Assembly: GCA_002269645.1 (NCBI GenBank)
Contig: NIVC01001565.1
Span: 1-64,000 of the forward strand
Direction: 5' to 3'
Length of the DNA stretch: 64,000 nucleotides
Origin: Macrostomum lignano
Taxonomy: Eukaryota
Shown: positions 5,455 through 64,000 of the stretch, one piece after another
How positions within the stretch are numbered: position 1 is the first letter of the stretch
Layout of the letters: each line of letters starts with the position of its first letter
Translations under genes and position numbers: made by a program
The notes under the pieces: generated by a model
The model's input: only the letters and a program-made list of their open reading frames with translations
What the model was told of the DNA's origin: nothing
Database searches by the model: none

Positions 5455-6110
5455 GCTGGCTGCTGAGTAGTGCTCAAGTGAGAGCTCACTGGCTGAAAGA
5501 GAAGCGAGTGGGTGAGGAGTGAGCAACTCAGTGCTGAGTAGTGCTCAAGTGAGAGCTCACTGGCTGAAAGAGAAGCGAGTGGGTGAGGAGTGAGCAACTC
5601 AGTGCTGAGTAGTGCTCAAGTGAGAGCTCACTGGCTGAAAGAGAAGCGAGTGGGTGAGGAGTGAGCAACTCAGTGCTGAGTAGTGCTCAAGTGAGAGCTC
5701 ACTGGCTGAAAGAGAAGCAAGTGGGTGGGGAGTGAGCAACTCAGTGCTGAGTAGTGCTCAAGTGAGAGCTCACTGGCTGAAAGAGAAGCGAGTGGGTGAG
5801 GAGTGAGCAACTCAGTGCTGAGTAGTGCTCAAGTGAGAGCTCACTGGCTGAAAGAGAAGCGAGTGGATGAGGAGTGAGCAACTCAGTGCTGAGTAGTGCT
5901 CAAGTGAGAGCTCACTGGCTGAAAGAGAAGCGAGTGGGTGAGGAGTGAGCAACTCAGTGCTGAGTAGTGCTCAAGTGAGAGCTCACTGGCTGAAAGAGAA
6001 GCGAGTGGATGAGGAGTGAGCAAATCAGTGCTGAGTAGTGCTCAAGTGAGAGCTCACTGGCTGAAAGAGAAGCAACTGGGTGAGGAGTGAGCAACTCAGT
6101 GCTAAGTAGT
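5455..6110 (-). repeat. 71-bp tandem repeat (about 9 copies) immediately 5' of SUMO copy 1
   Basis: Period 71 (e.g. 5461 to 5532). The last unit runs into CAGCAGCCAGC-ATG. Confidence 0.95.
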
Positions 6111-6294
6111 ATTTAAGTAAGAGCTGACTAGCTAAAAACAATTGAAAAATGGTTTTTTTCTCAAAAGATAGGCATAATTATATCTGATTTATATTATTAT
6201 TATCTTCAAAAAAATTAAACAAATCATTTTCTTGAATTTGTTTTATAAACTTGCTTTACCATTAAAATTAAATAAAATTAATGCTAGTATAGTC

Positions 6295-16015: not shown

Positions 16016-17419
16016 AGTTCCCCATTTAACAACATAGAATTGTTCAAAAACAAAAATGTAATATCCATATTATAGAGCTCTTGGGCCTAATGGCCTAATA
16101 GGCCTTGGGGGCACAATGAAGATTAGTGCAGGTGAATGTCTAGCCATCTAGTCATTGCAAGCAATGATTGGGGATAATCAGTTGAAACTTACTGAGATAC
16201 AGGTTTATAATAGCTATATGGTTATAATTAAAAAAATCAATTAAACTAATAAATATAACTAAACTGAACAATTTGTATCATTAAATCTGTTTCCTATCAC
16301 AATGGTGTGATATTTGTCTATGGTATAAAGTTTCAAGACAAAGTAGTGACTCAAAAAAGATATTCATGTTTGATCAGACTTTCTAAACAATCTTTATACT
16401 AGTAGTATATAGACTTAGTAGTGTAAGATTTAGTATATTATGTCTATACTATTGACCTGAGTGGCCTTATGGCACTTTTTGTATTTTGTATCTTTCTTTT
16501 ATAGCTTTCATCTATTTAGATTTTCTCTTAGTCTAGGTCTGGGTGTTCCCAGGATCAGAAGGTCATGGCTCTACACTCAAATCCATTACACAATATGCCA
16601 AAAATTGACTCCCTACAAACAAATTTATTTGTGATATATATACTAGACATTACTAGACTATACTAGACAAGCAATTGTTAAAGAGCCAAAAAGGTGACTG
16701 TACCTAGTTTCTTATGCAGAAAACTATGGGCTATATGTTCCTTTGAGTTTAGGCTTAGGATATTAAGATATCCTAATATCAAACTTTAGGGACTAAATGT
16801 AAGAAAAAGCAAATCAAATGTTTTTATAAAACTTCCATTATTTTTCTTTTTAAATGGAATAAGGAATTTAAAAGTTTGTTATTTTTCATTTCAATGCTAA
16901 TGCTTGATTACCCCTTAACAAAAGATTCTTTTTAAATAAAGGTTTATTGAGAACAATACACAAACACAAAAGCCTCATACTGTTTTATTTATTTATTATT
17001 GTCAATATATAAAAAGAGCAGGAAGTGCATTCATACATTCAAAGTAACATCCATCATATTTAGAAGTATTTGATTGATGTGACCACAGGGTTTTAATTCT
17101 CTAGTTAGCATGTCTGAAAGGCAAAGAATGAAACATTAAATATTAATATACTGGTATCTATCAAATTGTCGTAATTACCTTGAGCTTTAGCACAGCTTTA
17201 TGAATATGAAGGAAAGTTATGATAGCTATTTAAATTTGCAAGATTTAGTAGTTTCTACTAGTGTAAATATCTACACCAGAATTGCAATAAAACAATGTCT
17301 AGACTTCCAAAATGTTTGTTTTGTCATTAATTTTTCAAAGAGTAAGTCAAGTTTTAGATTCTTCTGACTAACTTTGAAGCTAGACTGCTGGCTAAATAAG
17401 CACTGCCTTCTTTTATTAG

Positions 17420-17820
17420 CTTCTCTTTCAACCAGCGAGCTCTCACTTGAGCACTACTTAGCACTGAGTTGCTCACTCCTCACCCACTTGCTTCTCTTTC
17501 AGCCAGCCAGCTCTCACTTGAGCACTACTCAGCACTGAGTGGCTCACTCCTCACCCACTCGCTTCTCTTTCAGCCAGTGAGCTCTCACTTGAGCACTACT
17601 CAGCACTGAGTTGCTCACTCCTCACCCACTCGCTTCTCTTTCAGCCAGTGAGCTCTCACTTGAGCACTACTCAGCACTGAGTTGCTCACTCCTCACCCAC
17701 TCGCTTCTCTTTCAGCCAGTGAGCTCTCACTTGAGCACTACTCAGCACTGAGTTGCTCACTCCTCACCCACTCGCTTCTCTTCATGCCAGTGAGCTCTCA
17801 CTTGAGCACTAATCAGCAGC
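17420..17820 (+). repeat. 71-bp tandem repeat (about 5.5 copies) immediately 5' of SUMO copy 2
   Basis: Reverse complement of 5455-6110. Confidence 0.95.
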
Positions 17821-17824
17821 CAGC

Positions 17825-18091
17825 ATGTCGGGAACCAACGCCTCCAGCGAGCACATCAACCTGAAGGTGCAGGGCCAGGACGGGGCCGTGATCCACTTCA
17901 AGATCAAGAAGAACACCCCGCTGAGGAAGCTGATGACCACTTACTGCGATAGGCTGGGCCTTCGGGCACAGACCGTCCGCTTCATCTTCGACGGAAACAA
18001 CGTGGAGGAGTCGGACACCCCGGCCACGTTGGACATGGAGGAGAATGACACGATTGAGGTGTTCCAGTCTCAGGTCGGCGGCTGCGTGTGA
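17825..18091 (+). CDS. SUMO: SUMO, intronless, 88 aa, copy 2 (inverted duplicate)
   Basis: Protein identical to copy 1. Only one synonymous difference (AAC vs AAT, Asn) was seen by eye. Confidence 0.96.
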
Positions 18092-18119
18092 GCAGCTGGG
18101 CTGTGCGACTCATTCTCGG

Positions 18120-18520
18120 TGACTGCTATGGGATGTCAGGGCGGTTGTTTTGGAGATTTGGGGAGTTTATCCCACTGACTGCTATGGGGTGTCAGGGCGG
18201 TTGTTTTGGGGATTTGGGGAGTTTATCCCACTGACTGCTATGGAGTGTCAGGGCGGTTGTTTTGGGGATTTGGGGAGTTTATCCCACTGACTGCTATTGG
18301 GTGTCAGGGCGGTTGTTTTGGGGATTTGGGGAGTTTATCCCACTGACTGCTATGGAGTGTCAGGGCGGTTGTTTTGGGGATTTGGGGAGTTAATCCCACT
18401 GACTGCTATGGAGTGTCAGGGCGGTTGTTTTGGGGATTTGGGGAGTTTATCCCACTGACTGCTATTGGGTGTCAGGGCGGTTGTTTTGGGGATTTGGGGA
18501 GTTAATCCCACTGACTGCTC
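18120..18520 (+). repeat. 56-bp tandem repeat (about 7 copies) 3' of SUMO copy 2
   Basis: GACTGCTATG recurs at 18121 and 18177, and GACTGCTA continues the 56-bp period at 18233. Confidence 0.93.
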
Positions 18521-19099
18521 TGGGGAGTTGGGTATTTCCCCAAACAGCTACCCCGATCTGATGCACTTACTGTTTGCTTTACTCTTCACTTTACTGTACG
18601 CTCGTATGTGGTTCCCTTTTCTTAATCTGTGTTTATGTTGTGTTTCTCATTGTGTAATGTTCGAGGTTTTCTAATCTGGATTAATACAGTAGATTATTAA
18701 AATGATAATATTTAGGGTTGGTTTAAATCTCAATCTTATTAGGGAATTAATAACTGTGTTAATACCTGTCTGTTTTTTATTTAATTAAGTCAAAATTCAT
18801 TTTCGCTTTTGTCGTTTAAAATTATAACATCAAATTGTATGCTTTAATGGCAGTCAGTTGATAATAAATAATCTATGCGTATTTATGGCTGGCGTTCAAA
18901 TATAAACTTCAACTAGGGGCTGAGTTATAATATGTTATGCTATAGTTACCCCCGCGCATTTTTATATCGCATGCTCATGCAGTGTTGCTGTCTACAAATT
19001 ATAGTCTTTTTTTGGTTTCATTTTTTAAATACAACAAATATTCCCGAATGTTTAAACAGCTGACTGAAGGAAGTCCCGTTGAAAACTGTCACAAGCGCG

Positions 19100-44093: not shown

Positions 44094-44937
44094 TGAGGCA
44101 GTGTAATATATCTGCTTTACAGTATGAAATATGGCTTTATTTTTAGTCTACGCAAACAATTGCTTTCTTAGAAATTACTATATTCAAATTTCCGGCAAAT
44201 ATTTTTGTTTTAACGTTGTGTGCGCAAATAATATTGTAGAAAATCAAAGTTTGTTTTAAATATATACGAAATAGTATAAATAGGAGCCCAGATGGGGCCA
44301 AGAAGAGCAACTTGCTCACTTCATTCGCTTGCTTGAATAATATTGAAGCAATAAGTTTACTCAATAAGAAATCTTTAAGCATTCTTATTTGGATTGTTCA
44401 TTTCTATAAGTATTACCCCCGAATTGGGAGAAGATCGCTAACAGCGAGAAATCGCCTAAGGGCAGTAACTGTAAATTCGCCTCAGGGCAAGAGAACCACC
44501 TCATAGCGAGAGAAGATCGCCTCAGGGCAAGGAAAACGCATAGAGCTGTGACCCTCTGATCCAGGGAACGCCCAGGACTGAGAGAATAATACGTTAGGGG
44601 AAGTATAGGAATAGAATAGACAGTGCCAATAGACTGCTCAGGCCAGAAGGTACAATAGAAGTACATACGCTACCAATAGAAGTACATACGCTACCAATAG
44701 AAGTACATGCGCTACCAGTAGAAATACAATTAACAACCAATAGAATTGTTAAGAAGAAATAGCTTTGTAACAACTTTGGTTACAGCGGTAGGATTTTGTA
44801 TCGTACGGGAACACCCTTGGCCTTACGACAACTTTGGTGGCATTTAGTGGGATTCTCATAGGGAGTCAAAAGACCTGTTACAACTTTGGTGGCAGCAAGT
44901 AAGGCTAGACAAAGGAATAAATAAGAGCCCTGGGACA
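44094..44937 (+). mobile_element. Solo LTR A (844 bp, Gypsy-like) with three PBS-like units at its 3' end
   Basis: TG...CA termini, TAAT 4-bp TSD (44090-44093, 44938-44941), TATAAATA at 44275 and homology to 46378-47277. Confidence 0.7.
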
Positions 44938-46377
44938 TAATATATGCCCAAAAATTTGGATGTGCATTGGCCTTGTATGCCAAAAGTTAGATATGCACAA
45001 TTGGTGTACATTATTCCTAAGAAAATAGTGTGCATATATACCTAGTATGCACTTATAGATTCATGCAAAAAAGTTAATGTTAAATAGAAAAAAAAATTAG
45101 AAAGTTTAGTTCAAAGTTCATAAATTTCAAGCTTTCTAGTATTTAAGATTGCAATAAGGCATTTAAACAAAAGTTTGTATATATCAATTTTCTGCTATAA
45201 ATAGTATTAGGCAAAAAAGATAAATAATAAACAAAGTTATTAGCCAAAAGGTCTTTTATGCAATACCAAAAGGGTTATTTACTGTTGCAATTTTTAGTAT
45301 GCATTTGTAACTATTTAATTTTTGTTCAGGTATGTACCTAGCATGATCTGGACTATTGTCACTATGATAATGAGGTTTAAGAAAAGGAATTGCAAATTTG
45401 ACTTAACACTACAAAAACTTTGTCTTTAGCAGATAGTCACAAATATTTTGACTTTTCTTGAGCTTTGTCTATTGATTGAGTGATTTACATGGCAGATTAG
45501 GTCATAAGGAGAAATTCAGGGCTGCTATATATCCAATTCCTATATATATAGCCTATAGGCCTATAGACTATAGTGTCTTTGTATATATGTACTTAGTAAC
45601 TTAGGGATCAATGAATTAGACAGGTCCATGCCTTCTCACTAGGCCTAGCTAGTCAAATTGAAATAGCGATTTTTTCTTGGACCTTATTTGGCTTAGACAG
45701 GAAGCCTGTTTGGCACATATATATCAATGTATTTAATAAAAATTCAAGAATAGAAGAAAAACCTTATGCATAAGTACGAGTTTGCAATAATATAGTATTT
45801 AAAATAAAAAAATGCCTAAATTTTTTCTTTGAAACTTTGAATGAGCTTTAATGACTAACAAAGCAAGAAGTATTTAGGTAAAGAATTAAAAAACAAGTAT
45901 TGTATGCACTTGATATATAGCAATTCAATTAATTGATCCTGTAGGTGATAAAAATAAGTATATAGGTATTAATCAGATAATAACATGATAACATGATATG
46001 ATATTTGAAAGAGTGTCTACCATAGTCAGCAAGGTGGCCTTTTTGCTTGAAAATTCTAGTGTGCATTAGCCATTCATAGTTCATTTGGCGTGAATTTAGC
46101 ATGCTTGAATCTTTAACAAATTGCATTTGGCATATTGTGTACACAACAAAATTGCATTTGGCATACAAAAAAGTGATATACAAAGCTAACTTAAAAAAAC
46201 AAGTATCAATAAGTTTCTGTAACAATAGTATCAATACTTCAAAGAAAAATGATGTGGTTAAAAGATGACGAAAGTACAATTAGAAAAAATTATATTAAAG
46301 AATGTGATAGTGCTTTTTTTAATAACTTAAGTACTAGGACTTTGTGTAACTGCAAGTTATTGTAAAGGAAAAAGGCA

Positions 46378-47277
46378 TGTAACAGGCCTTTTGGCTCTCT
46401 ATGAGAATTCCACCGTTATGCCACCAAGTTGTGGTAGGGGTGTTCCCGTATGATACAAAATCCTACCGCTGTAACCAAGTTGTGGCAGGGGTTACTTTTG
46501 TCTCTAATAATAATTTCACACTGTCACCAAAGTTGTACTAGGGCTAAACTAATCTTTTAAGTTGGTAGCTGCCACCAGGATTATCCTATTAATAAATTGT
46601 GAGTTTATCAATCTTAGAATAATCCGAGAAATGTTTCTTAGAATTGATCTGAGTATATATCTTAGTATTTAGTCTGAGTATTTAGTCTGAGTATTTAGTC
46701 TGAGTATTATTCTTAGAAAAACTGTTAGCCCTGAAAGATTTTACTCTTCTAATTATTCTGGTAGCGTTCTATCTAATAATGGCCTGAGCAGTATTTTAGC
46801 TTACTGGTATATGTATTTCATGTACTTTGCAAGTCCTTGGGCGTTACCGAGATCAGAGGGTCACAGCCTCCGTTATTCTTACACGTATTACTTCAGATCT
46901 ACTTCGCAACTTCTTACTACTCAACACTTTCCTTCTCAGTAGTATATATGGTCCACACTTCCGTCTACTTCACTCTTACTTCTTAAAAGGAATTAACACA
47001 GAAAACACTTCTTCAATTCTTAATTTTCTTGGAACTCTTACTATTCGTTATAACTATATTATTAGTGAACCGCGATGCGCAAGGTTGGTTCTCCCTCTGC
47101 CGAATTTGCTTGTATTTATAGGAAAATTCTAGTAGATTTTAAACAAAAATTAGTTTGCGTAAAATATTATACAAAACATAAGTATTAAAACAAAAATGTG
47201 TTGTAGTTTTTGGCGTGAATTTAAAGTGTAATAAACGATAGCTATTTTTAGAAAGAAATCGGGAGGGGCCCTATACA
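46378..47277 (-). mobile_element. Solo LTR B (900 bp), diverged relative of LTR A, with four PBS-like units
   Basis: Minus-strand TG...CA, imperfect 4-bp TSD (GGCA/GACA on +) and TATAAATA at 47120-47113. It shares GCTGTGACCCTCTGATC (46867-46851 vs 44545-44561) and other blocks in the same order as LTR A. Confidence 0.65.
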
Positions 47278-48582
47278 GACACAAAACTTTTTTGTTATAA
47301 TGTAAATATAAGCATCAAATGTAAAATGAGAAAAAAATGTCCTTAATTGTTGCAGCACAAAAATAAATTTGCATAATTTTTTTTCATTTTGACATACATA
47401 ACAATTGCATTTCCAATTTTTGGCATACTTGGCATATATAGGGACCTCTTCCCTAATTCCAGCATGCATATGCCACCTTCCTGACTATGGAGCATCTAGG
47501 ATTTTAATGGTATTTATGGACAAACTATAACAACCAACAATAGAACAACAAATAATTAAGTAGGGAGTTATAAAACTAGGTACTATATGGCTTTGATATG
47601 TAGTGTAATGTAATTTGGCTTAGGCAAGCAGCCTGTTTAGCCAGTATAGGCTTTGTATTTATAATTTAATTTTTAGTTGCTAGAAATAATTGTTAAATTA
47701 ATTGAGGTAAATTAGTAAAATTACAAAGTATTGCTTTGATTACAAAATAAGATACAAATGAAGTCAGATTGAAAAATTGAAAAAGGTTTTTTAATTAAAT
47801 TAAATTAAGAACAAGTTTTTAAATTACCACAAAAGGTGATAATAAAAGGTTATGAGGTTGTTAATAAAAAATTGGTTGTTCATAAGGACATTATTAATAC
47901 TAGGTGTATGGCTATAATAATAAAAATAAACAAATATTAATATTTATTATTTAGTATGTTTTGAATTTTGAAAAGATGCAAAAATGGTTCATCCAAAATG
48001 CAATTTAAAATAGGTAGGCCTAATTAGGCCTAAGCATTAAACTGTCAATGAAAAATATTGAATATAAGGATTAATAAGTGATTATTGTAAAAATATATTT
48101 GAAATCCTAAAAATGAGCAAATTTTAAGATCTAACAACTTAACAGCGATTTAAATTGGAAATAAAAAAGGTGATGAAAGGTGAAGGTAGGTATGAAGCTT
48201 GATTAGCTGCTTAGCATCTTGCTTCCAAAAAGATTCATAAGGGGCATCTTAGGCCTAATCTAAAAAAGAAGACAATTTTTACTGGTCTTATGCTGAAGTT
48301 TGATACTATTTGCTTTAATGCTCTTTGCATTATCCTAGACAATGGTCAATGGAAAGATGATATGATTATGAATGATTAACAAGTAGATACAAAATTAGTC
48401 TAGTAAGTTTAAGTTAGGCCTAACTACTTTTTTGGCCTAGGCCTTGCCTAATGACAATGTTGATACTAATAATATGAACAAAAAATTCCACTAAACGAAT
48501 GATTGATATAATAAGAATTATCAAATAAATATTCTTGTATTGAACATTATCAAATCACAATATGAAAGCATGCTTACTCTTT

Positions 48583-48872: not shown

Positions 48873-49229
48873 TGTAATAGTGCTCAATTTGCGTGCGCGT
48901 GCACTTCTAGTGTTTTCTCCGTATTTCTTTCTGCGTCACCCCACCCCTGCGTATAGCCTTTTCTAGAAATTCCTTTTTGTTTCTGATTGGCTGAAAACGC
49001 GTGAATAACGAGCCCCAACCAATAGAGTGCTTAGTGCCTACCCTATCGGCGAAATCCGATTGGTTAGGATTTTCTAAGCTGCGTTTTTCACCCTGCCCTC
49101 CCCCATCGCGGTCAGTCTATTTAATCAAGCAAGCTGGAACGCAAATAAATCAAGTTTTGAAGTTGAAGTTGAAGTTTTTCTCTGACTAAAGAAGTCCCGG
49201 CAGTTCAAACTCAAGAATACGCGGCTACA
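48873..49229 (+). repeat. 5' LTR of the Gypsy element
   Basis: TGTAATAG...GGCTACA; contains CCAAT boxes, TATTTAA and AATAAA. Confidence 0.96.
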
Positions 49230-49253
49230 TTGGCGACCACGCCAGTTTTCCAC

Positions 49254-50378
49254 ATGTGGAATAACGACGACTACCTGGAACTACGTGGACGTCTCGTCGG
49301 ACGACGGCGCAACGCAGGCGACGAGGCAGCTTCCGTTTCTACAGAGTCTACGAACGCGTCCAACCCCTTCGTGTCGATGACCACAGTCAGCGAAGCCACA
49401 AATCCCTTCCTCGTTGCCAACGACCTTCAGAGGGCACACTCGGCGGAAGTCTCAACCAACCCGTTCCTTGAAGACATCGACCAAGCGTCAGGGCAGGCCT
49501 CAGCAATGCAGCAGTACGCCTATCCTCCAGCTCACGGATACGCAGCGCTGCCAGACTACAATCCAGTACCGGCTCTTCCGCCAGTACCTAAGCCTGCACC
49601 GTACAACGGTCGGGAGGATTTCGACGACTTTCTCATCAGGATCAGCGCCTATATTAGCCGGTTCCCAGGCCTTCGAGACGCCGACAAGATCAACACCCTG
49701 ACTGCGTTCCTCGGACCGGCTTTTGCAACGTACACCACCTGGCTGGCGATCCAGTGTGCCTACGTCGGACTGCCACCGGGGACAACCCTGGACCAGCTAC
49801 CTGGTGTCCGCTATGAGGGCCTCGTTGAACACCTCCGGTCTCGTCACGGCGGGGCCAAGAGTGCAGCGTTACTTCGCCGCGAGTTCCGTGCTCGGCAGCG
49901 TCGACCAGAGGAGAGCTTCGAAACGTACCTGACGGAGCTTCAACGGCTAGCTGCAAGGGCATACCCGGACCCAAGAGCTCAGGCTTACGTCCAACAGACA
50001 GTTAGCGAGCAGTTCATGCATGGTCTCAATGACGGCTACGTCACCGAGCGACTACTGAATCAACCAACACCACCAAGCACTGTGGAGCAGGTTCTACGAA
50101 TAGCCCAGCAGCTTCGAGAAACCCGGGCCTACATGGATGCTGGCCGTGGCGAAATCCAGCCCCAGCAACCGAGACCACCACAGAGCCAACTTTCAGCGCC
50201 ACCGAAACCACTAATGCCTCAGCAGCCTGCCTCATCTGGCGGTCGCGGACAGCAACGACAGCAATCACCGGCTAGTTCCAACTGTTTCGGCTGCGGTCAG
50301 CCGGGCCACATCCGACGCAATTGCCCAAACGCCGAGGGGGCTGGTTCACGAGGCCAGCACCGGCCCTCTCAGCACTAA
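49254..50378 (+). CDS. gag: Gag polyprotein with a CCHC zinc knuckle
   Basis: First ATG at 49254. Capsid-like region (PYNGREDFDDFL..., RRQRPEES..YLTELQRLA) and CFGCGQPGHIRRNC. Confidence 0.93.
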   Translation: MWNNDDYLELRGRLVGRRRNAGDEAASVSTESTNASNPFVSMTTVSEATNPFLVANDLQRAHSAEVSTNPFLEDIDQASGQASAMQQYAYPPAHGYAALPDYNPVPALPPVPKPAPYNGREDFDDFLIRISAYISRFPGLRDADKINTLTAFLGPAFATYTTWLAIQCAYVGLPPGTTLDQLPGVRYEGLVEHLRSRHGGAKSAALLRREFRARQRRPEESFETYLTELQRLAARAYPDPRAQAYVQQTVSEQFMHGLNDGYVTERLLNQPTPPSTVEQVLRIAQQLRETRAYMDAGRGEIQPQQPRPPQSQLSAPPKPLMPQQPASSGGRGQQRQQSPASSNCFGCGQPGHIRRNCPNAEGAGSRGQHRPSQH

Positions 50379-53300
50379 CGCATTCGGCCTCAACACCACG
50401 CCTCAGCAGCTGCCAGCCTGGCCAGGTGCGCTTCGTCACAGCGCGCATCCTTAGACGACGGCGCCACTGTCTGATCGACACCGGGGCAGAGGTGTCCTGC
50501 ATCAGCGATGACATATGTAAGAAAGCTAGGCGGCGGCTGCAGCCCAGCAGCATCATCATAAGAGGCGTGGATGGCAACCTACAGTCTGTGCTGGGCGAGA
50601 CTACTTTGGCAGTGACTCTGGGAACCGTACAAGTCCATCATCGTTTCGTCGTACTCGAGAAGCTTCACCCGACGTCCGTCATCCTGGGCTGTGACTTCCT
50701 CAGTGAACACGACGTCTCGGTCCATCTCCAAGCCGGTTGCATCACTTTCAACAGCCTAGGCGTGTCGATTCCAGCTCGAAAAAGTAAAGAGGCAGCACAG
50801 ACCTGCAAGCTCGTATCAGCGGCCTCCGTGCAGCTGCAGCCAGGGGAGCGCTGGATAATCCCCGTTAAACCAGCAAAGTCGGCCTCGTGGACGCGATCGG
50901 AGTGTCCAGGAGTCGTCACCGGCACAAGATCACAGGGGCTCCTGGTGGGTCGTTGTGTTGCCAAGCTGGTCGAGAGAGGCATGGGCCTAGCAGTCATCAA
51001 CGTCGACGACCACACGGTCAACATCAGCGACGGCGACATTGTTGGCATCTTTTCCCCGTTAGGAAGTCAGCCATTTGTTCAGCAATCGGGTGCCGCTGGC
51101 AGCACGGCGGCGACGGCCGCTGGCAGCACGGCGGCGACGGCCGCTGGCAGCACGGCGGCGACGGCCGCTGGCAGCACGGCGGCGACGGCCGCTGGCAGCA
51201 CGGCGGCGACGGTCGCGGTCAGCACGGCTACATCAACAACAGCTTTAGCGACGGACTTACCTCGCACCAACTGGCTGAACGACGTGCACATCGAAAGCTC
51301 TATCTCCGTCGAAGAGCAACAGTCGGTCAAGGATTTGCTGTTAGAGTTCAGCACCGTTTTTGCATCCCCTGGCAATGCTGGTCGAACTGCAGTCCTGCAG
51401 CATCGCATCGACACCGGCGGGGCAAGGCCGATCCGGCAGGGTTTGCGGCGTGCAGCGCGTCCAGTCATCGACAAGCAGGCCGAATTGATCGACGACATGC
51501 TGACCAAAGGAGTAATCCGGCCGTCTTCATCGCCTTGGGCTTCGCCAATCGTGCTTGTTCGTAAGAAGGACGGGACAGCGCGCTTTTGCTTAGACTATCG
51601 ACTGCTCAATGAGGTCACCAAGCCGGACGCTTTTCCAATTCCGAGGATCGACGACACACTCGATGCGCTGCAAGGCAACGCCTACTTCTCGGCACTCGAT
51701 CTGGAGAGTGGCTACTGGCAGGTTGAGGTCGAGGAGCGCGACAAAGAGAAAACTGCTTTCATCTGCCATCAAGGCCTCTTCGAGTTCAACGTCATGCCGT
51801 TTGGTCTGCGCAATGCCCCGGCAACCTTTCAACGCCTCATGCAGCTGGTGCTCCAAGGCCTGACCTGGCAAGCGTGCCTGGTCTTCATCGACGACGTTAT
51901 TGTCATGGGCCGGACTATCGAGGAGCACAACTATCGGCTGCGGGCGGTGTTCGAGCGGCTGCGGGACGCGAACCTACGCTTGAAGCCATCTAAATGCCAT
52001 TTCGCCAACACCACGATGATCGTCTTGGGCCATCGAGTTTCCAAGTCGGGTATCACCGTCGACGAGTCAAAGACTGCTGCGATCCGAGACTGGCCTACAT
52101 CCCGAACTTCCAAGGAGGTCAAGAGCTTCCTAGGTCTCGCAGCCTACTATAGACGGTTCATTCGGGATTATTCAAAGATCGCCGAGCCGCTACGACGCCT
52201 GACGGTTCCGACAGAAAGGTTTCAGTGGACGTCCAAGGCCCAAGAAGCATTCGACCAACTGAAGGCAACACTGACCTCTGCTCCAATCCTCGCCTTCCCG
52301 GATACTAGTGCGACCAGCTCGGAGTTCATTCTGGACACTGACGCCAGCGACTGCGCCATTGGTGCGGTACTCTCTCAACTGCAGGCGGGCGAAGAACGAG
52401 TCATCGCGTACTCCAGCAGAGCACTAACAAAAGCCGAGCGCAACTACTGTGTAACGAGGCGGGAGCTGCTGTCCGTCGTTGAGCATGTCAGGAAGTTCCG
52501 GAATTACCTGCTGCCTCGGAAGTTCACCGTGCGGGTCGATCATCAGTCTCTAACGCACCTGCTGACATTCAAGGAGCCCGAAGGTCAACTCGCGCGGTGG
52601 CTGCAGACGCTAGACGAGTTCGACTTCAGAGTACTCTATCGGCCGGGCCGTCAACACAACAACGCCGATGCGCTGTCCCGTCAGCAGCAGCGCTGTACCA
52701 ACCAGTGTCGGGTGTGTCGACCAACAAATGAGACCACCAGCAGGACGACATCCTCGGTTGCCTGCCAGACCGACGCCAACAGTGATGCCGCCGCTGCCGC
52801 CCAGATCAACGCAGTGACCATCAAGCTAGTGTCGACGGCTACCGACGAAGCTGTTCAGACCGACAATGTGCATGTCTGCGTCGGCACCGTGCCATCAAGG
52901 CGCAAGCAAATCCATCAGCCCCGGTCGGACGACAGCGAAGAAAGCAGCAGCAGCGAGGACGACACCAACGAAGATGAATCCGCAGCGCCAGCGGCAGACA
53001 ACAGGCCACCGACGCTACGTATGCTTCAGCTGCAGGATCCGGTTATCAGTCCGGTGTTCCGACTGCTGGCCGACGGCAAGACTAGGTTTACCGACCGACA
53101 ACGCGACCGAGTACCGCCGGAGAGCCTGGTGCTGGCGCAGAAGGTGCATGACTTGTGTTTCGTGAACGGTACACTGCACAGGCTGGTCAACACAAAGCCA
53201 GTACCCGTCATTCCCCGCTGCCGACAACGCGAATTTGTCGACGAGATTCACAACGTCGGCCACCTGGGCGAAGTCAAGACGCTGGCCAGCCTAAAGACGC

Positions 53301-54364
53301 GTTGCTACTGGCCAAAAATGTCGGAGAGCGTCCGGTTGGCCGTTCGGTCATGCCAGGTTTGCCAGCGGGCAAAGACTCCGGTTATCAAGCGGGCGCCGCT
53401 ACAGTCCATCACTGCAGGGTTTCCAATGCAGCGTGTCGGGTTCGACATTGTCAAGGTCGGCGCTTCCAGAAACGGCAACGATCGGATCCTGAGCATCGTC
53501 GACTACTTCAGCAAGTGGACGGAGCTGGTGCCGATTCCGGACGAGAAGGCGACGACAATTGCCAAGGCCCTCTTCAACAACTGGATCTCCAGGTGGGGTG
53601 CTCCGCATATTCTCCACTCCGACCGCGGCAAGAGCATCGATGGCCGCATCATTCGCAGTCTCTGTACACTATTGGAGGTCGACAAGACTCGAACGTCGGG
53701 CTATCATCCTCAATGTGACGGCCTCGTGGAGAGATTTCATCGGACACTCCATCAGATGTTGCGCTGCCACCTTCAAACTGTCGATCCGCTGGACTGGGAG
53801 GACGCCCTGCCGTACTGTCTCCTAGCCTATCGAAGCAGCATCAGCGCGACGACCGGATTTTCCCCACATTTCCTGATGACGGGCCGGGAGGTGGTTCTGC
53901 CATTGGACGTTGTCTATCGGTCCCCAGAGCCTCCATCCGTCGTCGGCCAGTACGCAGTAGAGACCATTCAACGACTGCAGGACGCCTTTGACGCTGTGCG
54001 GAGGTCAACTGGCGCGGCTCAACGACGGCAGAAGCGGTACTACGATCTGAAAGCCCAGAAGCGCAAGTTTCGCACCGGCGATCTAGTGTGGCTGTTCGTT
54101 CCGCCTGCTGTGCTGTCCAGGACCAACTGTCTGCCTCCGAAGCATCAATCACCGTGGACAGGCCCATTTAAAGTCATGCGCAAGACATCACCTGTCAACT
54201 ACTTGGTGCGGCCGATCAATTACACGGACGGGGAGATCAAGGGGCGCGTCGTGCATGTCAACAAGTTGAAGCGAGCGTGTCTGCAACGGACCCAGTCTGT
54301 TCAGCGTGCTGATCAGGACGCCAGTAGTGACGATGAAGGGCAACTTGTTGACGCTGAGGACTGA
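50321..54364 (+). CDS. pol: Pol polyprotein (protease, RT, RNase H, integrase) in the -1 frame relative to gag
   Basis: LIDTGAEVS protease, SPWASPIVLV..KKDG..RFCLDYR, FIDDVI, ILDTDASD, the HHCC region (HNVGH..CQVC), DDE core and C-terminal WTGPF. The 1347-aa frame is uninterrupted. Confidence 0.96.
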   Translation: MPKRRGGWFTRPAPALSALTHSASTPRLSSCQPGQVRFVTARILRRRRHCLIDTGAEVSCISDDICKKARRRLQPSSIIIRGVDGNLQSVLGETTLAVTLGTVQVHHRFVVLEKLHPTSVILGCDFLSEHDVSVHLQAGCITFNSLGVSIPARKSKEAAQTCKLVSAASVQLQPGERWIIPVKPAKSASWTRSECPGVVTGTRSQGLLVGRCVAKLVERGMGLAVINVDDHTVNISDGDIVGIFSPLGSQPFVQQSGAAGSTAATAAGSTAATAAGSTAATAAGSTAATAAGSTAATVAVSTATSTTALATDLPRTNWLNDVHIESSISVEEQQSVKDLLLEFSTVFASPGNAGRTAVLQHRIDTGGARPIRQGLRRAARPVIDKQAELIDDMLTKGVIRPSSSPWASPIVLVRKKDGTARFCLDYRLLNEVTKPDAFPIPRIDDTLDALQGNAYFSALDLESGYWQVEVEERDKEKTAFICHQGLFEFNVMPFGLRNAPATFQRLMQLVLQGLTWQACLVFIDDVIVMGRTIEEHNYRLRAVFERLRDANLRLKPSKCHFANTTMIVLGHRVSKSGITVDESKTAAIRDWPTSRTSKEVKSFLGLAAYYRRFIRDYSKIAEPLRRLTVPTERFQWTSKAQEAFDQLKATLTSAPILAFPDTSATSSEFILDTDASDCAIGAVLSQLQAGEERVIAYSSRALTKAERNYCVTRRELLSVVEHVRKFRNYLLPRKFTVRVDHQSLTHLLTFKEPEGQLARWLQTLDEFDFRVLYRPGRQHNNADALSRQQQRCTNQCRVCRPTNETTSRTTSSVACQTDANSDAAAAAQINAVTIKLVSTATDEAVQTDNVHVCVGTVPSRRKQIHQPRSDDSEESSSSEDDTNEDESAAPAADNRPPTLRMLQLQDPVISPVFRLLADGKTRFTDRQRDRVPPESLVLAQKVHDLCFVNGTLHRLVNTKPVPVIPRCRQREFVDEIHNVGHLGEVKTLASLKTRCYWPKMSESVRLAVRSCQVCQRAKTPVIKRAPLQSITAGFPMQRVGFDIVKVGASRNGNDRILSIVDYFSKWTELVPIPDEKATTIAKALFNNWISRWGAPHILHSDRGKSIDGRIIRSLCTLLEVDKTRTSGYHPQCDGLVERFHRTLHQMLRCHLQTVDPLDWEDALPYCLLAYRSSISATTGFSPHFLMTGREVVLPLDVVYRSPEPPSVVGQYAVETIQRLQDAFDAVRRSTGAAQRRQKRYYDLKAQKRKFRTGDLVWLFVPPAVLSRTNCLPPKHQSPWTGPFKVMRKTSPVNYLVRPINYTDGEIKGRVVHVNKLKRACLQRTQSVQRADQDASSDDEGQLVDAED

Positions 54365-54628
54365 CTAACGCAGATTGAGGGCTGACTGACTGGTATTAGC
54401 CAACAATTTTGCTTTATATACTCGTAGGTCGTACGTCTAGGACTTTTTAATAGCGTTAATCTATTAGCTTGGCAATCCTGATTTAGGTTTAATTGTTCGA
54501 AACCCGGTTATCTCGATTTGTTCTATTAGCTATCAGCTGGTTCTGTTCTTCCCTATAGCAGTAGCTTTCATCTGTCGTTCCACCCCTTGGGTTTAATGAG
54601 GACATTAAACTGTTGAAAGGGGAGCTTT

Positions 54629-54985
54629 TGTAATAGTGCTCAATTTGCGTGCGCGTGCACTTCTAGTGTTTTCTCCGTATTTCTTTCTGCGTCACCCCAC
54701 CCCTGCGTATAGCCTTTTCTAGAAATTCCTTTTTGTTTCTGATTGGCTGAAAACGCGTGAATAACGAGCCCCAACCAATAGAGTGCTTAGTGCCTACCCT
54801 ATCGGCGAAATCCGATTGGTTAGGATTTTCTAAGCTGCGTTTTTCACCCTGCCCTCCCCCATCGCGGTCAGTCTATTTAATCAAGCAAGCTGGAACGCAA
54901 ATAAATCAAGTTTTGAAGTTGAAGTTGAAGTTTTTCTCTGACTAAAGAAGTCCCGGCAGTTCAAACTCAAGAATACGCGGCTACA
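54629..54985 (+). repeat. 3' LTR of the Gypsy element
   Basis: Same sequence as 48873-49229. Confidence 0.96.
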
Positions 54986-56230: not shown

Positions 56231-57383
56231 AAGATCTGCTAAGAATCAACAAGTCAATGTCTTCTAGGGCTATCTCATTATTCTCGCTATACTTTCATAG
56301 CATCGGAACTCGCAACTGCCTACTAACAAAAGTACATGTAGTGCGTAAGTTTTAGACACAATAGGCTCCGCTCGAGTTCTCGTGTGATAGATATTTATAA
56401 TTGTTTTTTTCGGCGAATAATATAATTATCGACATGTGAATACGCTCGTAGCACACAGTTCAGCTGGTATAGCTCGTGGTTTGCACACGAATTGCTCTGA
56501 AGAAAAGGTATATTTCATGACAAAAAATGTGGCCCTTAGTGAAAATTAAAGTATTTTGTACGCACATGTATTCCGTTAAACATCAATGCCTTTAACTATG
56601 GATCTGTATACACTATAAATAATTGTTTGCGGCACTTATGCAACCGAAATCTATTTTTATAGCAATATTTTGCTTTGAATCTGCATTCGCTAGAGAAAAT
56701 CTCAATACATGTACACACTCTTCGTAAGCTGTTTTGAGCAAATTAGATTTATAGATTTATAGAAATTGAGAAGCTATCGGCGTGCATGTATCGATGCAGC
56801 TCGGAGAGAGTATGGCTCCAATGGCATGGCCTGAAATTGGTCCATTCAGCGAGAGCCACTTTAGCCATTCTTTCCCCTCTTAACTACTCCTTCAAGCTCT
56901 TTCCCCATCCCTTTCTGAATGATATCTGGGATGAGGAGGACGCAGGCCCTGGGCTAATATCCTATCTGAGCAAACTGGTGAACAAGACAAGCAAGTAAAT
57001 GAGATCAATAGCTGGCAAAGCAGTTCGGCATTGGTAGAGGTTTGGAATAGAACAATTTGCCAGAAAATTCAGTTTGTGCTCGAGTAATCCAGTTGCTGTA
57101 TAGGCTGGGCACGCCGATCTCTGTCTGTCGGTCTGTCCGAAGCCCCCAGTCCCCAATTTGGCGCATTGTGTCAAGTACAATTCCCTGCTTAAGTGGTCCA
57201 AAGCTTCTTCTCGCTTTGATGAGTGCGGCCTAATGCAATTGGTTTGGGCCCTTTATCAGCCCGCCCAGGGTTCTGATCTGCTTATTGAGGTCCAACTGTC
57301 TCTGAAGCCCTCTGTGTCCTGTCTGCGCTATTATATGCCAATATATTCCCGGGCACCGCCAATGCACCACCAACGAACGATCA

Positions 57384-57780
57384 CAGGGGCGTCGCCATGG
57401 ATTTAATGGTGAGGGGGACAAAGCCAAGAATTCAACATGTACATGACTAAATTTTCGTACTCATTTTAGCGCCGCAGGCACTCATTTTAGCGCCGCAGGC
57501 ACTCATTTTAGCGCCTCAGGCACTCATTTTAGCACCGCAGGCACTCATTTTAGCGCCGCAGGCACTCATTTTAGCACCGCAGGCACTCATTTTAGCGCCG
57601 CAGGCACTCATTTTAGCGCCGCAGACAGTCATTTGGGCGCCGAAGACGCTATAATTTGGCGCACTGTAGAAAAATTACTGATTACCACAAGGGGGGTGGG
57701 GGGGGACAAAGCATTGGCATGTCCCCCCCAGAGCTTTTACTGGGGGGGGACATGTCCCCCCCCCGGTGGCGACGCGCCTG
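57384..57780. mobile_element. 397-bp hAT-type MITE carrying a 21-bp tandem repeat
   Basis: TIR CAGGGGCGTCGCCA / TGGCGACGCGCCTG (13/14) and a perfect 8-bp TSD AACGATCA. Internal (GCACTCATTTTAGCGCCGCAG) x about 7. Confidence 0.9.
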
Positions 57781-57859
57781 AACGATCAAGTCAACGCGAT
57801 GCATGCAAAATATAGTCTTATCTTTGTTGATGGGTTGGGTTCAAGTGGATAAATTTTGC

Positions 57860-58275
57860 GATTCTTCCAGAGTGACGACTTTCTACACCCTACGATTCTT
57901 CCAGAGTGACGACTTTCTGCACCCTGCGATTCTTCCAAAGTGACGACTTTCTACACCCTGAGGCTCTTCCAGAGTGACGACTTTCTGCATGGACCCTGAG
58001 TTTCTTCCAGAGTGAAGACTTTCTGCACCCTGCGATTCTTCCAGAGTGACGACTTTCTACACCCTGCGATTCTTCCAGAGTGACGACTTTCTACACCCTG
58101 CGATTCTTCCAGAGTGACGACTTTCTGCACCCTGCGATTCTTCCAGAGTGACGACTTTCTGCACCCTGCGATTCTTCCAGAGTGACGACTTTCTACACCC
58201 TGAGGTTCTTCCAGAGTGACGACTTTCTACACCCTGCGATTCTTCCAGAGTGACGACTTTCTACACCCTGCGATT
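57860..58275. repeat. 34-bp minisatellite (CGATTCTTCCAGAGTGACGACTTTCTACACCCTG)n
   Basis: About 12 tandem copies. Confidence 0.93.
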
Positions 58276-58819
58276 TGTACACCACGCAGACCGACCGATC
58301 TTCTGCCCAAAATTTGCTTTATTTTTCGCATTAAAAATGACTTGGCGGCTATTGCTACCTAAAAGGAGCTGTGGAATTTTCCTGTCGCACCTTTGTTGTT
58401 TCAGCGCAACTCTGCCTAGGAGAATTCCTGCACTGTGGGAATGCAGGGCAGAACAATAACCCCAAGTGGGGGACTCAATTTATTCGACTTCTTTTCTTAG
58501 AATAAAGAACTGCATTTAGGAGAGAGAGAAAATGGCCACCTGCTCGGTTGGCTACGGGTAAATTGAAGAAAAAATGGTCCCAGGGGGGGGGCAATGCGCA
58601 CACAGACCGATCAAGGCGAGGGGTGGGGCACCAGGGAGCTTTCATAGAGAAGAATGGCGGAGCAGTTTTAGGCCGGCCACTGAGAGCTGAACTGTGCTCA
58701 TTTTAACGGTCGGCTCGACTAAGGAGTTCCACAAACAGGAGCCCGGAGATGTGACACTCCACTAAGCCTCCGTTTGCAGACAATTGAAAGCTGACTGTAC
58801 ACTTGGCGACTATCCACGG

Positions 58820-59268
58820 TAACCTAAACCCTAACCTAAACCATAACCTAAAACCCAACCCTAACCTAAACCATAACCTAAAACCCAATCCTAACCTAAA
58901 ACCCAACCCTAACCTTAAACCCTAACATAAGACCCAATCCTAACCTAAAACCCAACCCTAACCTAAAATCCTAACATAAGACCCAACCCTAACCTAAAAC
59001 CCAACCCTAACCTAAAACCCAACCCTAACCTAAACTCTAACATAAGACCCAATCCTAACCTAAAACCCAACCCTAACCTAAAACCCTAACATAAGACCCA
59101 ATCCTAACCTAAAACCCAACCCTAACCTAAAACCCTAACATAAGACCCAATCCTAACCTAAAACCCAACCCTAACATAAACCTCAACATAAACCCTAGCC
59201 TAAACCCTAACCTAAAACCAACCCCAGCCTAAACCCTAACTTAAAACCCAACCCTAACCAAAACCTAA
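58820..59268. repeat. Degenerate CCCTAA/CCTAAC-rich (telomere-like) tandem repeat
   Basis: AAACCCAACCCTAACCTAA-type units with scattered perfect CCCTAA hexamers. Confidence 0.85.
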
Positions 59269-59824
59269 AGGCTCTTCAGATTTATCGTGACAGTTGGCAA
59301 AGCTGTCTGTTGAGCACAAAATGCACGAATCGATTGCAACTAAAATCGTTGAGGTATTAAAAAAAACTTCTTAACGTCTAGTAGAAAAATCCAGTCAGCC
59401 TAAAATCGAAGGAAGCTGGGGGGTCCCGGAGTTACTCGAAACCGGGTTCTGCTTCTGGGTCTCCTCGACTCGAGCCACGTCGCTCAGTGAATCGGCTATT
59501 TGCTCGCGATAAATAGAAACTACAACAGACGGCTATTATAACTGGCTGATGAAGAGCAGGGAGCGGATTTCTAAGAATCCAGGGCGCCGAATAAATTATT
59601 TAACTGGCCGGGCAATTGGGTTTTTTTGGCGTGGAGCTCTGCATTTTGTTAATCCCGGGTGGAAATTAACTCTAGGAAGCATCTGATTCTCCTTTGTTTC
59701 TTTGCGGAGATATAAAAATTTTGGGTAAATCCTCGGGACTCTATTCCTTAAGCGGAGGGGTATGGTTGCTGGCTATCTCAGTTGCATGACAACTCATTTA
59801 ATGAGCAGTCAGTGTGAATCAGTC

Positions 59825-60562
59825 TTATCGCAGGCACTCATTTTGGCGCCGCGGTAGATACTCATTTTGGCGCCACAGGCACTCATTTTGGCGCCACAGG
59901 CACTCATTTTGGCGCCACAGTAGGTACTCATTTTGGCGCCTCAGTAGGTACTCATTTTGGCGCCACTGGCACTCATTTTGGCGCCACTGGCACTCATTTT
60001 GGCGCCACATGCACTCATTTTGGCGCCTCAGTAGGTACTCATTTTGGCGCCACTGGCACTCATTTTGGTGCCACAGGCACTCACTTTGGTGCCACAGGCA
60101 CTCATTTTGGCGCCACATGCACTCATTTTGGCGCCTCAGTAGGTACTCATTTTGGCGCCACTGGCACTCATTTTGGTGCCACAGGCACTCACTTTGGTGC
60201 CACAGGCACTCATTTTGGCGCCACATGCACTCATTTTGGCGCCTCAGTAGGTACTCATTTTGGCGCCACTGGCACTCATTTTGGTGCCACAGGCACTCAC
60301 TTTGGTGCCACAGGCACTCATTTTGGCGCCACAGGCACTCATTTTGGTGCCACAGGCACTCATTTTGGCGCCACAGGCACTCATTTTGGCGCCACAGGCA
60401 CTCATTTTGGCGCCACAGGCACTCATTTTAGCGCCGCATGCACTCATTTTAGCGCCGCAGGCACTCATTTTGGTGCCACAGGCACTCATTTTGGCGCCAC
60501 AGGCACTCATTTTGGTGCCACAGGCACTCATTTTGGCGCCACAGGCACTCATTTTGGCGCCT
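59825..60562. repeat. 21-bp minisatellite (CACTCATTTTGGCGCCACAGG)n, about 35 copies, related to the hAT-MITE internal repeat
   Basis: Unit nearly identical to that at 57475-57630. Confidence 0.93.
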
Positions 60563-61729
60563 GAAGAAAATTTTTTTATTTCAGTAACGGATCACAAAGG
60601 TGTCACGCGGGAAAAGCATTGGCATGTCTAAGCAAAGAATTCTCTCACCCTCCCCCCTAAGTTTCAGCTTTCCTCTCCCAGATGTCACACCTCAGAGCTC
60701 CTTGACTGTTCGGCTGTGCAGAGGAATGAAAAGAGAGGGGGAGAGGACTGCCCCTTCTTAGACTGAAGAAGCGCATACAAGAAAGCAAAGCCAGTCAAGA
60801 CTTGTTCTCTATAATTGGTCGAATTCAAATTAGGCTGAGGCAGCTCACTCCGGGAAACCGAACAGAGGAAAATAGAAGCTGGCGCTGAATTCGTGGGGAA
60901 ATCTGGGAGAAAAGGGGGTGGGCAAACAACACCGAAGCAGCAGTGAGGCTTGGCCCCGGCAGCTGTCTGGGGGTCAGAGAGTAGTAGTCTCTGTAATTGA
61001 GTTGACCTGACTGGCATGTTTGCCGTCTTAGAGAATCCCCCCTCCATCCTTTTTTGCTCAAATCCTCGAGCCTGCAGTCACGCCCAACAGAAGCAGCAAG
61101 ACCATTTTCTTCTTTCACTCAGCTTCTTTGGGATCACATTTATGCTAAGCCATTCGAATATCCCCAGTGCCATTGGAGAAGCTGGCAGCAAGGTCTCGCT
61201 CTGCTCTCGATCGGAAATGGAATCTTCCTTTTATTTTCATTTCGCCGCGCCGATTCTGATGGGGGCGCCGTTTGCTCAGAATGAGCGAGCGGAACTGCCG
61301 AGGCGTTGCCAGGGCTGGGGGGGGGGAGAAACTGATGAGCCCCTTTCTCGGTCGGAAAAGGGTTATGAGTTGTCGGTCAGTGCGCGTCCTTCCCTCATCC
61401 ATCCCCTGGTCCAGCTGGGCACCCGCTGTTTATTGTTGGCTAATAAAGGCGCTGACAGTGACAAATTGATGCTTGCAAGTCTGTCGGATTAGAATCCGGG
61501 ATGGCGGGATCCGAGAACCCCCCGATTGGGGTCGGCATTGGGATAAAAAGGAATTTCTTCTTTGTTGAGCAAACATCTGCTTTTGGCCTGCGTCTCACAG
61601 CTCCAGTTCGCATCTTTTCATATCTATCTGCTGCTCTGCCCTGTCTATCTGCACATCTCTGCTCAATAACTATCAAACGCGTAGCATACCCGTCTGCCTT
61701 GTATGCCATTGTATCCATATACAATGCAT

Positions 61730-62392
61730 CTATCTACCATGCATATATCTACCATGCGTCGATTTATCAGACATCTATCTACCAGATATCTATCTACCAT
61801 GCATCTATCTACCGTGTGTCTATCCACCATGTATCTACCTACCAGATATCTATCTACCATGTATCTATCTAACATGCATCTATCTAACATGTACCTATCT
61901 ACCATGCATCTATCTACCATGTGTCTATCCACCATGTATCTACCTACCAGATATCTATCTACCATGTATATATCTAACATGCATCTATCTACTATGTATC
62001 TATCTACCATGTGTCTATTTATTAGACATCTATCTACCAGATATCTATCTACCAGATATCTATCTACCAGATATCTATCCACCAGATATCTATCTACCAG
62101 ATATCTATCTACCAGATATCTATCCACCAGATATCTATCTACCAGATATCTATCTACCAGATATCTATCCACCAGATATCTGTCTACCAGATATCTATCT
62201 ACCAGATATCTATCCACCAGATATCTGTCTACCAGATATCTATCTACCAGATATCTATCCACCAGATATCTATCTACCAGATATCTATCTACCAGATATC
62301 TATCTACCAGATATCTATCCACCAGATATCTATCTACCAGATATCTATCTACCAGATATCTATCTACCAGATATCTATCTACCAGATATCTA
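61730..62392. repeat. 15-bp (ACCAGATATCTATCT)n / ATCT-rich minisatellite
   Basis: Directly visible; the RYLST/YLVDR ORFs are artefacts. Confidence 0.94.
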
Positions 62393-63269
62393 TTCATACA
62401 GACATTTAGAACAAGTCTTCTACCATATATTTACAAGCATTACCATACACAAACTCTGCCATCTCTACCCTTGTTTCTCCTCACCCTATTTATCTCCGTC
62501 TTTAAATTTGTCTCCCCACTTCATTGCATCCTGATAGATTCGAAAAAGAATATGAAAAATAGTTGGATAATTTTGTTGCTTTGAGTTCGCCTCTGAATAA
62601 ACGGTTTATCCACAGCACCCTGCCTGAACCCCCACATTTTCTGTTCAGCTTCAATTTACGCAAGTCTTCTCTGCATTGACCTCGGGCGCTCCGGTTTGCC
62701 TTGAGGCCCTGCCTGCCCGTCTCCCGCTCTCCTCCTTCTCAGTTGAGAACAATTCAATTTCTGGGAGAATTTCCCAAGTTTTATTGGCCGGGCTAATGGG
62801 GGTCAGGCGACCCCTCGGCGACAAGTGGACTGAGCTCATTACAACCGGCAAATTGTCTTCTGCCCCTCGGCCGCTCCCGCAGCCACAATGGTCAGAACTG
62901 TTGAATAATTTCATTCACAACCCCCGTTCCGGCTGATAAACAGCCTCAGGCTCTCGGCCCGATATTTTCCCTTCAATTCTCCCAGTTTCCTCATCCCATT
63001 ATCCCATCGGCACCAACAGACTCTAAATGCAGCTCTGTTTATCAACACTAGAAGCTTTGACAGAAAACTGAGTTACCGAGATTCAGTGAGTGCTGGGATC
63101 TCCTCTGGCTGAAATATTCGAGCAGTCAGGTTTTCCATACTTCTATAAGCCAGTAAGAATGAACTGGCTAGCAAACTATTCCTGACGAAATAATGCTTTG
63201 ATTTGAACGGTTTTTTCTAAAAATATAAATTTAGCAAACAATGGGAGACATAAGTAGAGAGGGAAACTT

Positions 63270-63780
63270 ATGTATAGAGGGAGAGAGAGAGGGAGACAGA
63301 GGGGTCGACGGAGAGGGAGACAGAGAGGAAGACAAAGAAGGAGACAACAAAGAGGGAGACAGAGAGGGAGGCAGAGAGGGAGGCAGAGAGGGAGGCAGAG
63401 ATAGAGACAACAAAGAGGGAGACAGAGAGGGAGGCAGAGAGGGAGGCAGAGAGGGAGACAAAGAGGGAGGCAGAGAGGGAGACGGAGAGGGAGACAGAGA
63501 GAGGGAGACAGAGAGGGAGGCAGAGAGGGAGACAGAGATAGACAACAAAGAGGGAGACAGAGAGGGAGGCAGAGAGGGAGACAGAGATGGAGACAACAAA
63601 GAGGGAGACAGAGAGGGAGGCAGAGAGGGAGACAGAGATGGAGACAACAAAGAGGGAGACAGAGAGGGAGGCAGAGATTGAGGCAGAGAGGGTGGCAGAG
63701 AGAGGACAGAGAGAGACTACAGAGAAGTAGACAGAGAGGGAGATACAGGGGGAGACGCAGAGAGACAAAAAAGAGGGAGG
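63270..63780. repeat. GA-rich compound repeat (GAGAGGGAGGCA/GAGACAACAAA)
   Basis: Directly visible. Confidence 0.9.
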
Positions 63781-63829
63781 CAGATAGGAAGACAGAGAAG
63801 AGATCTAGATGTTTCGGTTTGAGAGATGC

Positions 63830-63935
63830 GGTGAGATGCAGACAGGGGTGAGATGCAGACAGGGGTGAGATGCAGACAGGGGTGAGATGCAGACAGGGGG
63901 GAGATGCAGACAGGGGTGAGATGCAGACAGGGGTG
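63830..63935. repeat. 17-bp minisatellite (GAGATGCAGACAGGGGT)n
   Basis: About 6 tandem copies. Confidence 0.9.
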
Positions 63936-64000
63936 AATAGGCCCAGCCAGGACAGCTCAGGAGATGAAAATAATATTTTTATTCTCGGCCACGGAACGGA

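Follow-up and report, generated by a model that had tools for sequence, protein, structure and literature searches.

Arrays of former primer-binding-site units at the U5 end of a Ty3/Gypsy LTR family in Macrostomum lignano

Introduction

The textbook long terminal repeat (LTR) has one U5 end and one primer-binding site (PBS), whereas in the family described here this boundary shifts in whole modules. Plus-strand copying of the primer tRNA, by which the PBS is restored, is an established mechanism, and Ty3 has a bipartite PBS. For engineered retroviral vectors, plus-strand transfer errors and dual initiation were reportedly described by Pulsinelli and Temin and by Voronin and Pathak.

In Drosophila, gypsy has two tRNA-Lys2 binding sites, according to the available part of PMC1635307. 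The LTRs of Helenus, Ajax and Cassandra contain tRNA- or 5S-derived sequence (PMC10886601, available part), and the available parts of PMC13524379 and PMC12471100 give a single PBS per element. The Mag, CsRN1 and Gmr1/Osvaldo clades have been reported for Macrostomum lignano in the available part of PMC12801592, where the main text mentions neither PBS, primer binding nor tRNA; two motifs of our family are absent from the searchable text of its five supplement files, in which only six families are given. No description of arrays such as those reported below was found in the literature searched, a scope outside which lie most subscription papers, Repbase and bioRxiv supplements, any of which may hold one.

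We analysed a stretch of 64,000 nt of M. lignano DNA (contig NIVC01001565.1, positions 1 to 64,000; hereafter the window), which contains two solo LTRs with PBS-like units, LTR A and LTR B, and followed the family through the genome.

Solo LTR B and its units

The features of LTR B are as follows.

46378-47277, minus strand: solo LTR B, 900 nt, TG...CA, boundaries set by aligned copies
47278-47281, minus strand: upstream target-site copy of LTR B, TGTC
46374-46377, minus strand: downstream target-site copy of LTR B, TGCC, one mismatch
47113-47121, minus strand: TATA-like box in U3, from sequence, with a putative role
46851-46867, minus strand: conserved family-wide LTR motif that served as anchor
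46534-46577, minus strand: unit 1, an old unit found in nearly all B-type LTRs examined, whose head equals the tRNA-Leu PBS over 10 nt only
46481-46529, minus strand: unit 2, spacer type D
46430-46477, minus strand: unit 3, type H, whose head agrees with the tRNA-Leu PBS at 15 of 18 positions, common to LTR B and unit 1 of LTR A
46378-46426, minus strand: unit 4, type A, whose tail is the integrated LTR end, common to LTR B and unit 2 of LTR A

LTR B is complete, running on the minus strand from TG at 47277 to CA at 46378. As a single LTR with a 4-bp target-site duplication (TSD; one mismatch) and without an internal region, it qualifies as a solo LTR. The four PBS-like units proposed in an earlier note on this DNA were found where it had placed them: the minus-strand heads lie at 46577, 46529, 46477 and 46426, spaced by 48, 52 and 51 nt, and the array ends in GGCCTGTTACA at 46378. 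Each unit consists of a PBS-like head, a spacer, an LTR-end CA and a linker. In B-type LTRs the first unit is decayed and escapes the parser, and the parsed array of LTR B, D-H-A, is a prefix of the array of locus L003 (D H A B* B F A), which continues beyond it with a perfect head and three more units. The four LTR bodies nearest to LTR B carry the arrays B-F-A-G (twice), B-F-M-A or B-A-B.

The earlier note had allowed that LTR B might merely be a truncated copy of a longer uniform LTR. This is ruled out by its TSD and by the arrays of the family, in which U5 holds one to eight units. Unit content differs between near-identical copies. An assembly artefact is unlikely, as the same four units head the independent insertion L003 and contigs of four sequencing runs cover the stretch of LTR B, although none spans it. 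Contigs of runs X1 and X6 join across it (46371-47290 of the window) with 17 other letters, like an empty-site allele or a paralog. A copy of LTR B with the same flanks and 99.7% identity lies on another contig (L002, G000:C1551), and such duplicates are frequent among the loci.

Relation to LTR A

The second solo LTR of the window has three units.

44094-44937, plus strand: solo LTR A, 844 nt, TSD TAAT, of the same pol family as LTR B and another LTR-body subfamily
44777-44937, plus strand: three units of LTR A with heads at 44777, 44835 and 44887, namely an H-like unit with a small insertion, type A and type C

The homology claimed between the last two units of LTR B and units 1 and 2 of LTR A was confirmed by BLAST (114 nt, 83% identity, E 4e-26). 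So was the offset: LTR A has one further unit at 44887-44937, and LTR B has two upstream units that LTR A lacks. The description of the two LTRs as sisters holds through pol only, since 45% of aligned sites differ between the two bodies, and BLAST links the LTRs solely over the two-unit block and one 36-nt motif. The offset is one block placed in two very different LTR bodies.

The element family

Family copies that have an internal region code for gag, which contains a zinc knuckle, followed by PR-RT-RH-IN (Pfam on the ORFs of L063). Among solved structures their reverse transcriptase (RT) is closest to that of yeast Ty3 (PDB 4ol8, 7q5b), and the nearest named proteins are M. lignano Pol proteins (85% and 55%). 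Like Ty3/Gypsy elements, they have two direct TG...CA LTRs with a TSD, a tRNA PBS after the 5' LTR and a polypurine tract before the 3' LTR. A perfect 4-bp TSD flanked 53 of the 62 solo LTRs scored, against one of 62 with a perfect match at 5 bp; 55 other ends (3' LTRs, start not found, or end not CA) were set aside. The 17-nt anchor motif has 583 exact genome matches, some of which may lie outside the family. When elements with A-type LTRs are compared with those carrying B-type LTRs, RT identity is 98-100%, which makes co-packaging plausible; to further subfamilies it is 90-95%.

An extra ORF of about 250-410 aa follows pol in L063 (8520-9641), with no match in Pfam, and ORFs of similar place and size were seen in L110, L112, L115, L120, L121, L129 and L187. 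A similar ORF is retained in non-autonomous copies without pol. At G000:C1833:108000-125000 (L065, L066), three non-autonomous units form a tandem chain with four shared LTRs and a spacing of 4.6 kb.

The window also holds a separate, intact-looking Gypsy element on the plus strand (48873-54985; 357-nt LTRs at 48873-49229 and 54629-54985; TSD GCTA). It encodes gag and a 1362-aa pol, its RT is only 46% identical to that of the array family, its PBS is different, and no unit array was seen in it. Very dense and varied minisatellites occupy 1-41000 and 57000-64000 (97 TRF rows). A telomere-like array of AACCCT lies at 58827-59265, and 4898-6137 and 17419-18525 form an inverted pair.

Primer-binding sites and unit heads

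A linker of 2-5 nt follows the last unit of an array; next comes the true PBS, and then the leader that runs to gag. One form of this PBS is the exact 18-nt complement of the 3' end of the genome's tRNA-Leu(AAG/TAG), an end with 12 pattern matches in the genome (10 of the 10 checked were tRNA-Leu(AAG/TAG) genes). The other departs from the tRNA complement after 11 nt; the true PBS is usually of this imperfect kind, in forms fixed subfamily-wide. Exact and imperfect forms coexist among near-identical siblings, a mixture that plus-strand copying of the tRNA would be expected to produce. One young U5 end has 72 matches in the genome, of which 42 are followed by flanking DNA and 30 by a PBS-type head (17 imperfect, 10 perfect, 3 other); a fully restored PBS stands before the leader at nine of these 30 junctions. 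The imperfect PBS survives repeated correction by the tRNA.

Imperfect PBS forms stood before the leader at every place counted (20 of 20; 27 of 27) and were found inside a unit at none of the 47, and perfect heads inside arrays stand on five spacer types. That the imperfect PBS always precedes the leader while perfect heads lie within arrays suggests that the heads come from the tRNA and not from the genomic PBS.

Heads vary, and some resemble the ends of other tRNAs, as would suit an adaptive cassette in which heads tuned to different tRNAs enable a switch of primer. However, only 12 of 183 distinct heads match a tRNA end at 17 or more of 18 positions, all of them that of tRNA-Leu(AAG/TAG) and none any of the six other tRNA ends tested. 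In addition, G to A changes make up most of the 667 departures of heads from the tRNA copy, read on the element sense strand (368, with a further 145 G to T), a spectrum biased by the detection profile, which determines which heads are seen. We regard such a cassette as highly unlikely.

Unit catalogue and polarity of the arrays

Loci were gathered as best matches to LTRs A and B, via the leader, and by contig order, and do not form a random sample. We parsed 184 anchored LTR stretches, of which 174 had junctions and 159 remained after de-duplication. The 174 stretches had one to seven junctions each, compared with 0.005 per shuffled 800 nt under the same junction profile. In the 159 de-duplicated LTRs, 385 of 407 units fell into 19 spacer types of at least three copies each, implying a finite pool of units shared among arrays rather than a new unit at each step. 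Twelve named types were found as the terminal unit, that is, as the integrated end, which together with the perfect TSD of 53 of 62 solo LTRs indicates that most unit tails are working integrase ends.

The polarity of the array is real: close relatives have the U3-side units in common. Among 148 pairs with bodies within 10% of each other (78 distinct arrays), the shared prefix was longer in 59, the shared suffix in nine, and 80 were ties, counts that come from non-independent pairs in a non-random sample. Near-perfect heads were last in 10 of 15 cases and first in none (78 distinct arrays; 4.4 expected for each; permutation p 0.001 and 0.002), and first heads had on average 4.4 mismatches to the tRNA copy, compared with 3.2 for last heads.

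Polarity, this gradient of decay and eroded unit remnants on the U3 side all agree with the conveyor envisaged in the earlier note, in which one fixed-size unit is added at the PBS end while one is lost at the far end, so that nested arrays order lineages. However, the nested pattern expected across the family (ABCD, CDE) gave way to shuffled order, which that note had itself named as a refuting outcome, with 31 of the 59 type pairs present in at least two arrays seen in both orders. Blocks of one to three units move together and units are 35-89 nt long in a sister family, contrary to a fixed step size, and the conveyor is further at odds with the finite pool, with loss at the PBS end and with A and B bodies 45% apart. 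It is scarcely credible in this form. What stands is in part the proposed loss at the distal end, seen in the eroded remnants, alongside loss at the PBS end (C3171 and C1860, below), and the use of arrays to order copies, which is possible within a young subfamily only. The overall picture is only partly that of the earlier note: polarised gain is real, and the array is a stack with exchange, not a lineage ruler.

Fifteen spacer types were present in both body groups. In a weak test, the prefix before a near-perfect head was found as a full array elsewhere in 4 of 10 cases, compared with 16 of 66, and an uninformative 11-mer search allowing two mismatches gave fewer matches than chance. A conserved hairpin per unit was considered and rejected: of 17 types, type G alone beat shuffles (mean z -2.8), and the average over types was +0.1. 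Pairing between a unit's own head and tail was no better than mixed pairing.

Gain and loss in two-LTR elements

We tallied by hand 33 elements with both LTR ends resolved: 28 had identical arrays, three were longer on the 5' side and two in the 3' LTR. Left out were the unresolved L072, L078, L099, L061 and L289, the duplicate L295, and elements for which the DNA examined contained no 3' LTR. L063/L064 was also excluded as a two-LTR element, its second LTR being a solo copy in a duplicated flank.

The three elements with 5'-only extras, two of them found through targeted searches, carry one (C391), one (C390) and two (C754) additional units; their LTR pairs are 99.7-99.9% identical and their TSDs match. 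Each extra block begins with a perfect 18-nt tRNA copy, and the element's own imperfect PBS comes after the block. Together with the longer shared prefixes and the gradient of head decay, these cases bear out the idea that units are gained at the PBS-proximal end. In C390, the last 29 nt of the extra unit reproduce the element's own U5 end exactly and the opening bases of the unit resemble type N, and the first extra spacer of C754 resembles type R of other subfamilies. Within the young subfamily, extras occur at two of 30 5' junctions, those of C390 and C754. Among the 72 matches, no 3' or solo LTR with the young U5 end carries either extra, which indicates that the direction is gain.

The two elements with the shorter 5' LTR have older LTR pairs (97.7% and 98.7% identical): C3171 lacks one unit with the crossover in a tail, and C1860 lacks three with the crossover in a head (TSD CAAG). 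Some changes carry no tRNA mark, such as the duplicated A unit of L219 and a tail-to-tail deletion in L008. L082 and L219 have tandem unit duplications, and chimeric units are also present in the family.

Such duplications and deletions could also have arisen after insertion in the ordinary manner of minisatellites, as chromosomal copies underwent slippage, unequal crossover or gene conversion, and the greater age of the LTR pairs in the 5'-shorter cases and a genome rich in tandem repeats fit this explanation. However, it does not predict polarity, nor that a perfect copy of the tRNA should sit precisely at the join, nor foreign units between LTR and own PBS in pairs that are 99.7-99.9% identical, and we consider it quite improbable.

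A further explanation places the changes in minus-strand strong-stop synthesis, with template switching between co-packaged RNAs at heads or tails, and takes the 5'-only extras as the result of tRNA priming at an inner head (the 3' LTR losing units and the head being refreshed). Dual initiation occurs in two-PBS retroviral vectors, chimeric units and tail-to-tail deletions exist, and C391 fits: its siblings L093 and L094 carry the extra unit in both LTRs, so that priming at an inner perfect head explains it equally well. On the other hand, this route would put new units in both LTRs at once, and no parent with the C390 or C754 extras in a 3' or solo LTR was found among the 72 matches. The imperfect PBS is also missing from units (0 of 47), although it shares less homology with heads, so its absence is partly expected under minus-strand switching too. 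Overall, we consider the minus-strand route unlikely, though it deserves some weight.

Proposed mechanism

We consider it probable that this family has a variable stack as its U5 end, to which units are added and from which they are removed at the PBS side, likely by misdirected plus-strand strong-stop jumps during reverse transcription. The evidence for this consists of genomic snapshots, with cDNA intermediates not among them, from which we infer the steps below.

Plus-strand strong-stop DNA would end in the tRNA copy, and inner heads on the minus-strand U5 would offer alternative landing sites. For a gain, the strong-stop tip, before its normal PBS pairing, would land on a PBS-like head in U5, either its own or that of a co-packaged minus strand; one or more spacers would be copied, and normal transfer would then leave extra units on the 5' side only. 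One generation on, the new units would appear in both LTRs, a stage that L093 and L094, compared with L088, may represent. For a loss, the plus strand would transfer early to the PBS from an inner head or tail, and units would be removed. Older U3-side units would decay, mostly by G to A changes, and erode. New spacers may arise when the element's own U5 end is re-copied behind the tRNA copy; in L182 of the sister family, three 35-nt units each combine a tRNA copy with the element's own U5 end, and the two meet at a GGGAT present in both. A jump made during the first 8-10 nt would leave no perfect head, and such jumps would cover most of the unmarked changes. LTR B would be one frozen state of this stack.

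The genome keeps first-generation intermediates, and second-strand transfer errors, co-packaging of subfamilies and correction of the PBS by the tRNA can therefore be counted from sequence. One can also test whether the additional PBS copies are debris that the element tolerates or serve to defend it against tRNA fragments. The pattern is a warning, too, that families of this kind have mis-annotated LTR ends and PBS calls.

3' tRNA fragments can silence retroelements. We speculate, while holding it doubtful, that there is a widespread class of tRNA-Leu-primed Gypsy elements in which the tRNA copy acts as a universal adaptor capturing the U5 modules of co-packaged relatives at several percent per insertion, leaving a polarised and heritable record of partners, and in which the stack and the imperfect PBS are selected as decoy and escape from silencing by such fragments.

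Related arrays and comparison with known systems

PBS copies inside LTRs also occur in a sister family (RT of L183 59% identical to that of the array family). Among other tRNA-Leu LTR families, perfect PBS copies within LTRs were observed in L182, L183, L184, L269, L271, L277 and L185/L186, with units of 35-89 nt. A metagenome scan yielded four contigs (L298-L301) with the same layout, two to five units of tRNA-Leu PBS, spacer and TACA end, in otherwise unrelated sequence. L300 is a tiny element-like sequence made almost only of units, and in L299, by eye, a gag-like ORF comes after a series of varied spacers.

The array family resembles Ty3/Gypsy (Metaviridae) elements in its gag zinc knuckle, PR-RT-RH-IN order, TG...CA ends, 4-bp TSD and polypurine tract, in a tRNA-Leu PBS a few bases past the LTR, and in an 18-nt tRNA copy that restores the PBS. 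However, canonical members have a single U5 end and a single PBS, which lies outside the LTR, whereas here one to eight former PBS/end units lie in U5. With Drosophila gypsy and Ty3 the family shares more than one tRNA-binding site per genome, but the sites of those elements have fixed 5' and 3' places, without a repeated LTR end, array or exchange.

Retroviral vectors are similar in that a tRNA-copied 3' end can land on PBS-like sites and several PBSs are usable. Their errors are rare and mostly dead ends, while the array described here is natural and heritable, with 12 unit types that were once integrase ends. CRISPR arrays are comparable by analogy only, in their repeat-spacer look, polarised addition and far-end decay of older units. 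Polarised addition was found in our family; unique foreign spacers and a conserved nested order were not, nor were Cas genes, and new units derive from the element's own or a related U5, in a finite self-derived pool whose order is not kept. Finally, Helenus, Ajax and Cassandra likewise hold small-RNA-derived sequence within the LTR, in their case a single promoter-type insert, in contrast to the tandem copies of an 18-nt tRNA 3' end, each followed by an LTR end, that make up the arrays of this family.
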